DNA of 64,000 nucleotides. Source: Oikopleura dioica (lineage: Eukaryota; Animalia; Chordata). Positions 61,105 to 61,347 of this stretch are shown here, one piece after another (the first letter of the stretch is position 1; every line of letters starts with the position of its first letter). Under the pieces are notes generated by a model. It searched no databases and had not been told where the DNA came from. It saw only the letters and a program-made list of their open reading frames with translations. Location: positions 3,658,001 to 3,722,000 of the forward strand of contig OU015566.1 in assembly GCA_907165135.1 (NCBI GenBank). Reading direction: 5' to 3'. Both the position numbers and the translations under genes were made by a program.

Positions 61105-61347
61105 TTACTTGGTCGGGGTTGAAAAAGACTCCTCCTTTTGTCGTTTGCGGCGAAACAAGAGGATGTGTGGTTCGGGAAGATGTCTCAAATAGTGTTCCCA
61201 ATTTGTTAGGAGGTTTATTCCAAGTTCCCGCCACTCTTGTACTGTCATAAGGCGCTCAATCGGTATTTTCGGGACCCAAGACTTTGGGACCGTGACGTGG
61301 ACATACTCGTACGTATTGTCCTGATATCTTTCACTATAACGAATCAT
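61105..61347 (-). CDS. CKS: Cks1/Suc1-like cyclin-dependent kinase regulatory subunit
   Basis: MIRYSERYQDNTYEYVHVTVPK...LMTVQEWRELGI...WEHYLRHLPEPHILLFRR aligns without gaps to CKS1 (IYYSDKY...EYRHVMLPK...LMSESEWRNLGV...WVHYMIHEPEPHILLFRR). ATG at 61347 after TTCAG-G. Confidence 0.92.
   Translation of the reverse strand: MIRYSERYQDNTYEYVHVTVPKSWVPKIPIERLMTVQEWRELGINLLTNWEHYLRHLPEPHILLFRRKRQKEESFSTPTK

Follow-up and report, generated by a model that had tools for sequence, protein, structure and literature searches.

Among retroviruses, genes that act on the host cell cycle include the rv-cyclin of walleye dermal sarcoma virus and HIV Vpr, which causes G2 arrest; their products are different proteins from Cks, viz. 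a cyclin or a ligase adaptor. The Tor elements of Oikopleura dioica are Ty3/gypsy elements with gag-pol and LTR, and splicing or internal promoters have been described for their third gene, env (Henriet 2015, PMC4402516). The closest described carrier of host-like cargo is the giant gypsy element Burro of planarians, whose internal region of about 25 kb encodes host-like RING, ubiquitin-like and apoptosis domains (PMC6431247). Cks proteins were called enigmatic in a 2025 preprint, and the anion contacts of their phosphate pocket have been reviewed as K11, R20, R71 and the main-chain nitrogen of S51 (PMC3930463). The R20A change in human Cks1 severely disabled binding to APC/C and left CDK binding unaffected (PMC2928024), and suc1 R39A, which is equivalent to human R20A because sequence alignments place the two arginines together, did not rescue a suc1-ts strain (10.1101/2025.07.04.663185).

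In the present work, we have analysed a window of 64,000 nucleotides of O. dioica DNA (contig OU015566.1), to which positions below refer unless another contig is named. The minus strand of this window encodes a protein, termed here the element Cks, which by its profile, predicted fold and aligned CDK contacts belongs to the Cks family. The Pfam CKS model (PF01111) matches its 80 amino acid (aa) ORF with 93.2 bits (cut-off 27, E 1.1e-26) over model positions 1–67 of 68, as for proteins of the Cks/suc1 family. The protein aligns without gaps with human CKS1 (1buh_B residues 6–75, offset +4) and also with human CKS2 in the PDB, and 33 of 66 residues are identical over human positions 6–71 (counted against P0086, whose core is identical in sequence to the 1buh_B row), in agreement with the initial annotation, which had described an ungapped alignment with about half of the residues identical to human CKS1B. 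AlphaFold2, supplied with an alignment of 114 sequences, yields a model with the four-stranded sheet and two helices of the Cks fold (pLDDT 90.5), and this model depends on that alignment, which consists of ordinary Cks proteins (the single-sequence fold has a pLDDT of just 50.3). The eight best Foldseek matches of the model are all human CKS1/CKS2 chains (rmsd 0.7–1.1 Å). The DNA itself recurs in sequencing data, a proportion of 0.92–0.99 of sampled words from 59800–63400 being found in 6 DNA runs from 3 studies, of which 2 runs were flagged as possible sources. The features of the Cks gene are given below, where homologue counts refer to 258 listed homologues (the best 150 of 1,215 representatives, and 108 new ones among the 120 listed of 5,712 profile matches).

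61105–61347, minus strand: Cks ORF, 80 aa, intronless and intact (open frame, Pfam, PDB alignment and predicted fold)
61348–61413, minus strand: in-frame upstream extension from an alternative start, 22 extra residues, outside the Pfam match
61349–61353, minus strand: TTCAG, splice-acceptor-like, one base before the ATG of the 80 aa frame
61327–61329, minus strand: position of K11, Arg, a natural variant (homologue counts, yeast sequences)
61300–61302, minus strand: position of R20, Val, the key predicted pocket loss (R in 251 of 258 listed homologues, V in 0)
61240–61242, minus strand: position of E40, Val, where the Skp2-side helix has lost a residue that is conserved (E in 249 of 258 listed homologues, V in 0)
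61198–61215, minus strand: pocket loop 49–54, human CKS1 QQSQGW to NLLTNW (S51L, G53N; W54 kept; alignment)
61147–61176, minus strand: PEPHILLFRR, hinge and CDK-binding strand, E63 included, R71 kept (alignment, homologue counts)
61100–61105, minus strand: AATAAA overlapping the Cks stop codon, possible poly(A) signal (weak: found at 5 of 39 ORFs, the background being 0.044)

The face that would contact the kinase is largely unchanged in the element Cks. Ten of the 12 listed CDK contacts are identical to those of human CKS1, and the two others (M23T and M58L) are natural variants, found in 12% and 14%, respectively, of the best 150 of 1,215 homologues. The HxPEPH hinge is present, and the stretch PEPHILLFRR, reported earlier as intact, is kept at 61147–61176; the accompanying claim that the CDK-binding strand has been retained is thus borne out at the level of aligned residues. 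The conserved columns that the protein misses (R20, E40, S51 and G53) include no listed CDK contact.

The phosphate pocket differs from this pattern in its aligned residues. The five pocket positions read, from human to element Cks, K11 to R7, R20 to V16, S51 to L47, W54 to W50 and R71 to R67, exactly as the initial annotation had called them, and a complete anion pocket (K/R11, R20, S51, W54, R71) is lacking through R20V and S51L; therefore, the element Cks is not to be filed as a canonical phospho-adaptor. A non-basic residue at position 20 occurs in 6 of the 258 listed homologues, position 51 is S in 244 of them and L in 0, and 3 of them differ at both R20 and S51. The codons for V16 and L47 each lie two bases away from the nearest Arg or Ser codon, and these changes are therefore no single-base errors. 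Beyond the calls of the initial annotation, which do not extend to E40 or to the rest of loop 49–53, the remainder of the loop has also been rewritten (Q49N, Q50L, S51L and G53N, viz. QQSQG to NLLTN), and a compensated frameshift was ruled out as its origin, neither alternative frame being Cks-like. We have likewise rejected K11R as a pocket loss, because arginine is natural at this position, where it is found in 35 of the 258 listed homologues and in both S. cerevisiae Cks1 and S. pombe suc1 (which read YSPRY around it). Since the contact of S51 is made by its main-chain nitrogen, S51L may by itself have little effect, and it is on R20V that the argument depends, which we regard as the decisive change in a pocket that is, judged from its residues, impaired. 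The earlier statement that part of the pocket has been lost thus stands for R20V, with K11R shown to be ordinary and S51L perhaps mild, and the retention of R11, W54 and R71 means that some anion binding may survive.

Five metagenomic Cks proteins (P0038, P0057, P0080, P0105 and P0111) likewise have no basic residue at position 20. Three further proteins (P0003, P0004 and P0010) contain two Cks domains in tandem; P0003 is a nematode record, and the pocket of its first repeat is degenerate (R20M and S51T). On the Skp2 face of the element Cks, 3 of 8 listed residues are identical to human; the Skp2-binding residues E40, S41, E42 and N45 of Cks1 are V, Q, E and E, respectively, so that the residue set of the Skp2-binding subtype is incomplete, and positions 41 and 45 vary widely among homologues. 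By analogy with R20A and R39A, the element Cks is predicted to fail both in binding phospho-Thr peptides and in complementing suc1/cks1. The proposal of the initial annotation, that such a protein may occupy CDK without recruiting primed substrates, fits the published mutants at the R20-equivalent position, CDK binding and a cell-cycle effect being predicted.

The pattern of conservation bears upon the kind of selection that has acted on this gene. Of the columns conserved at 90% or more, 24 of 28 are kept in the element Cks, as against 12 of 36 other columns (Fisher p 3.4e-5), which points to purifying selection; selection on the fold and on the CDK face is, from this sequence pattern, well supported. 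Selection for loss of the pocket is only suggested by the residues concerned, for 2 of 4 conserved pocket columns are missed compared with 2 of 24 other conserved columns, a difference that is not significant (p 0.086). Four or more conserved columns are missed by 17 of the best 150 of 1,215 representatives, and the level of divergence of the element Cks is thus not unique, 17 of these 150 listed representatives being equally or more divergent.

The gene is cargo of a Ty3/gypsy-type LTR element, a setting that does not figure in the initial annotation. It is located between two Gag-like genes, upstream of pol and on the same strand as these, and the features of the element that surround it are as follows.

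61571–62329, minus strand: Gag-capsid-like ORF directly upstream of Cks (46% identity over 137 aa to the gag at 56527, E 1e-38)
58177–58791, minus strand: two-ORF unit, paralogous to 47030–47576 across pol (39% and 31% identity)
56527–57882, minus strand: gag, capsid part (ORF and paralogue alignment)
55775–56717, minus strand: a piece with a CCHC zinc knuckle and, in another frame, a piece with the putative protease motif LLDTGAS
52505–55871, minus strand: pol with RT, RNase H and integrase, the integrase split over frames (Pfam)
42765–43634, minus strand: ORF with two Gag-capsid-like repeats (E 5e-23 to gag)
39575–39587, minus strand: polypurine tract adjoining the LTR
39268–39574, minus strand: 3' LTR candidate, 307 bp, TG...CA, 7-bp inverted ends, TATATAA and AATAAA

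The order of gag followed by protease, RT, RNase H and integrase, together with the polypurine tract and TG...CA LTR at the 3' end (39268–39587), is that of Ty3/gypsy elements. The LLDTGAS motif, in a piece to which Pfam gave no match, we take to be that of the protease. The best solved-structure match of pol is Ty3 Gag-Pol (E 3.8e-59), and the top ESM Atlas match of the ORF directly upstream of Cks is Retrotrans_gag (0.92). Within the 64-kb window we have found neither a partner for the 307-bp 3' LTR nor an LTR pair flanking pol, and a hydropathy scan of the region downstream of pol within the window revealed no long ORF whose C-terminal part contains a membrane segment, as would be expected for env. 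From about 39.6 kb to the end of the window, ORFs cover 0.83 of the minus strand as against 0.30 of the plus strand, the minus strand being A-rich and its ORFs intronless. The element holds about 39 ORFs on one strand (39268–64000), and its length is at least 24.7 kb if it reaches the window end, the distance from LTR to Cks being 22 kb in any case. The codon style of the Cks gene (0.076 bits per codon toward the element model) lies within the range of the element ORFs (0.02 to 0.21) and outside that of ORFs in the host flank (-0.17 to 0.02). The gag-pol region of this copy is in six pieces with shifting frames, so that the copy may be dead or may carry assembly errors. Two ORFs of the element are on record on two contigs each, which represents either a second copy or a second assembly, and none of 16 ORFs matched in PHROGs. 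The carrier element may be more notable than its Cks.

Various other host-like genes were identified in the same array:

63039–63422, minus strand: Rab1-like ORF, matching over its first 65 aa, P-loop degenerate, probably inside the element
43695–51861, minus strand: cargo stretch with five RING-finger ORFs (51556, 47630, 44592, 44072, 43695); at 45416, a TFIIB-repeat-like ORF that scores below the Pfam cut-off
41441–42412, minus strand: connexin-like ORF (Pfam Connexin, 66 bits, E 5e-18)
40484–41403, minus strand: two TFIIB-like ORFs, zinc ribbon and repeat, below Pfam cut-offs

The element thus has three TFIIB-like ORFs, all below Pfam cut-offs, of which the one at 40852–41403 is identical over 183 aa to an Oikopleura dioica record. 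The Rab1-like ORF, probably part of the element, encodes a second partly disabled host protein. For the connexin-like ORF, which is found in an element with no env seen in the window, a function in cell-to-cell signalling or as a gap-junction decoy is conceivable as speculation. Elsewhere in the window, a large palindrome (66–2373) has arms of about 1.1 kb with 98–100% complementarity in their best segments and internal repeats spaced 146–170 nt, and represents a foldback element or an assembly artefact. A tandem duplication of about 2 kb (34346–38845, 86% identity) surrounds a 500-base N gap, contains TTAGGG-type repeats at 35054 and 37709, and is adjoined by the LTR end.

Several features suggest how the array might be expressed. 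An alternative ATG upstream of the Cks gene, at 61413, is in frame and would give a product of 102 aa; the TTCAG located one base before the ATG of the 80 aa frame favours the shorter form. TTYAG motifs lie within 20 nt before 12 of 39 element ORF starts as against 17 of 305 other ATGs (p 1e-5; 39575–63422, minus strand), in a count for which the motif was picked after viewing the flanks and which used the upstream Cks ATG, itself without the motif. In O. dioica, a quarter of the genes are reported to lie in operons and 39% to be trans-spliced (PMC5240408), and this, taken with the TTYAG enrichment and the splicing described for Tor elements, indicates that the array may be read like a host operon. 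Four RNA runs compared with 52001–64000 gave 2 reads in one run, both in pol, and 0 in the three others, counts that are no gauge of expression, and the runs listed as containing 59800–63400 included none of RNA.

We hold with middling confidence that the element Cks binds host CDK1/2, displaces the host Cks and docks primed phospho-Thr substrates poorly, acting as a decoy that uncouples priming. In the first of the proposed events the element would have captured an mRNA of a host Cks, and the gene would be expressed as a subgenomic mRNA through cis-splicing or spliced-leader trans-splicing at the TTCAG before its ATG. The protein would bind CDK by its intact face in competition with the host Cks, and the loss of phospho-Thr docking would weaken primed multisite phosphorylation and thereby the activation of APC/C and Cdc25, leading to a G2 or prometaphase delay. 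The benefit to the element, which is the most speculative step, might be that chromatin stays accessible for longer while the nuclear envelope is absent, or that more cells turn to endocycling. A twofold excess of wild-type Suc1 has been reported to delay the cell cycle (10.1101/2025.07.04.663185). Pocket-dead yeast Cks1 has been reported to raise basal kinase activity still (10.1101/2024.02.28.582599), and the net effect of the element Cks could hence be activation.

The same observation supports a rather unlikely alternative, which is the main rival, viz. that the CDK-bound protein recruits a new partner, or simply stabilises and boosts CDK independently of the pocket; the kinase would then be redirected and not dampened. 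The rewritten substrate face is more hydrophobic (V16, L46, L47 and V36) and could receive, for instance, another protein of the element or a ligase of the RING type, five RING ORFs and the TFIIB-like ORFs being present in the same element; the four lost conserved columns are all off the listed CDK face; and priming is reported to account for just about 40% of the strongly Suc1-dependent sites (10.1101/2025.07.04.663185).

We consider it distinctly unlikely that the gene is a passenger under relaxed selection, captured and now drifting, with a pocket loss that serves no purpose. Such drift would agree with the enrichment of misses in the pocket, which reaches p 0.086 only, with the broken gag-pol of the carrier copy and with the degeneration of the Rab1-like cargo, but the frame has remained open at 50% identity, the hinge strand is complete, 24 of 28 conserved columns are retained, and the acceptor-like motif lies at the canonical Cks start.

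Highly unlikely, in our assessment, is a further explanation, that Oikopleura's own Cks or a paralogue bears the same substitutions and that the element copy is an ordinary duplicate. CDK1 paralogues are reported as duplicated and diversified in Oikopleura (PMC8832800), and one repeat of the nematode tandem Cks P0003 has R20M and S51T; however, R20 is kept in all 108 further listed homologues, mostly named animal Cks proteins, and no close relative was found, the top identity being 67% among the best 150 of 1,215 representatives. Word-based protein searches with the element Cks gave no match among proteins of near length or longer, an exact look-up of 20 element ORFs found 3, the Cks not among them, and a five-sequence Cks profile with 5,712 matches gave no Oikopleura name among the 120 listed. 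Among viral sequences, BFVD folds gave no match to the Cks model at E 0.001 or better, and a scan of viral contigs for related loci with a single Cks protein query yielded none among 6 candidate stretches. A scan by pattern yielded 3 loci, with a Cks at a single one of them (L003), and a scan by alignment 2 of 45, viz. the L003 contig and L008, which is putatively viral; the metagenome scan gave 3 of 160, with partial matches of 50–56%.

That the locus is an endogenous large DNA virus with a viral Cks and an inserted ordinary Tor retrotransposon is scarcely probable, for although the RING, TFIIB-like and Cks genes resemble giant-virus content, a Cks is present on the giant-virus MAG contig L003 and the 5' LTR is absent from the window, pol has no flanking LTR pair within the window, the sole LTR and polypurine tract lie 13 kb downstream of pol at the end of the array, Gag-like paralogues are spread over the array with all ORFs on one strand, and 0 DNA-virus core genes were matched in the Pfam or PHROGs scans.

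The preferred reading, a decoy Cks that would occupy CDK and uncouple priming, can be extended to the whole carrier, and here we are more tentative. It is possible, if doubtful, that the element represents an undescribed class of giant animal LTR elements, in which a trans-spliced operon of dozens of captured host regulators would include a priming-dead Cks as a dominant decoy that reprograms CDK1 multisite phosphorylation; RING ligases, mimics of TFIIB and Rab1, and a connexin that replaces env would act beside it.

A retroelement-borne Cks or an Oikopleura element of such size was not found in the full-text literature, where the accessible text of PMC13524379, PMC8832800 and PMC7160111 names neither (subscription journals, Repbase and Dfam lie outside this scope). 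What we describe is thus a naturally pocket-defective Cks, as judged by its residues, on a giant LTR element that is apparently undescribed. A natural variant that lacks R20 and keeps the CDK face would provide a separation-of-function reagent for studying what Cks proteins do beyond the phosphate pocket. If expressed, it would be the first retroelement-carried Cks, as far as the literature shows, and the element would be an invertebrate-chordate LTR element with host-control cargo of a kind known from large DNA viruses.

Compared with human CKS1B/CKS2, yeast Cks1 and suc1 (PDB 1BUH, 4YC3, 4LPA and 1SCE), the element Cks is alike in fold, PEPH hinge, E63 and other CDK contacts, W54 and R71, and shares the arginine at position 11 with the two yeast proteins, whereas it differs from all of them in R20V, S51L, G53N, E40V and Q49N/Q50L and in being intronless and retroelement-borne. 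With the engineered pocket mutants (human R20A; suc1 R39A and R30E/S79E/R99A; yeast R33E/S82E/R102A) it shares the loss of arginine-20 with an intact CDK face, R20A and R39A being the closest parallels; unlike these, it is natural, about 50% diverged elsewhere and known from sequence alone. The Cks of L003 (2707–3114, plus strand) is also carried by a mobile genome, but it has two insertions, a K at the R20 position and an unchanged S51, and its carrier is a DNA virus, not a retroelement. The Tor elements are described as having gag, pol and env (PMC4402516); as far as that description goes, the present carrier differs from them in that it comprises about 39 ORFs, measures 24.7 kb or more, has cargo flanking pol on either side and shows no env-like ORF within the window. 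Burro has a 4,873-aa polyprotein with env, in contrast to the dozens of separate small ORFs found here, and its published account, in the text consulted, names no Cks, connexin or Rab (PMC6431247). The carrier rivals the largest known LTR elements and does so within one of the most compact animal genomes. Its likeness to the retroviruses with rv-cyclin or Vpr would lie in the action of a retro-transcribing element on the CDK control of its host.
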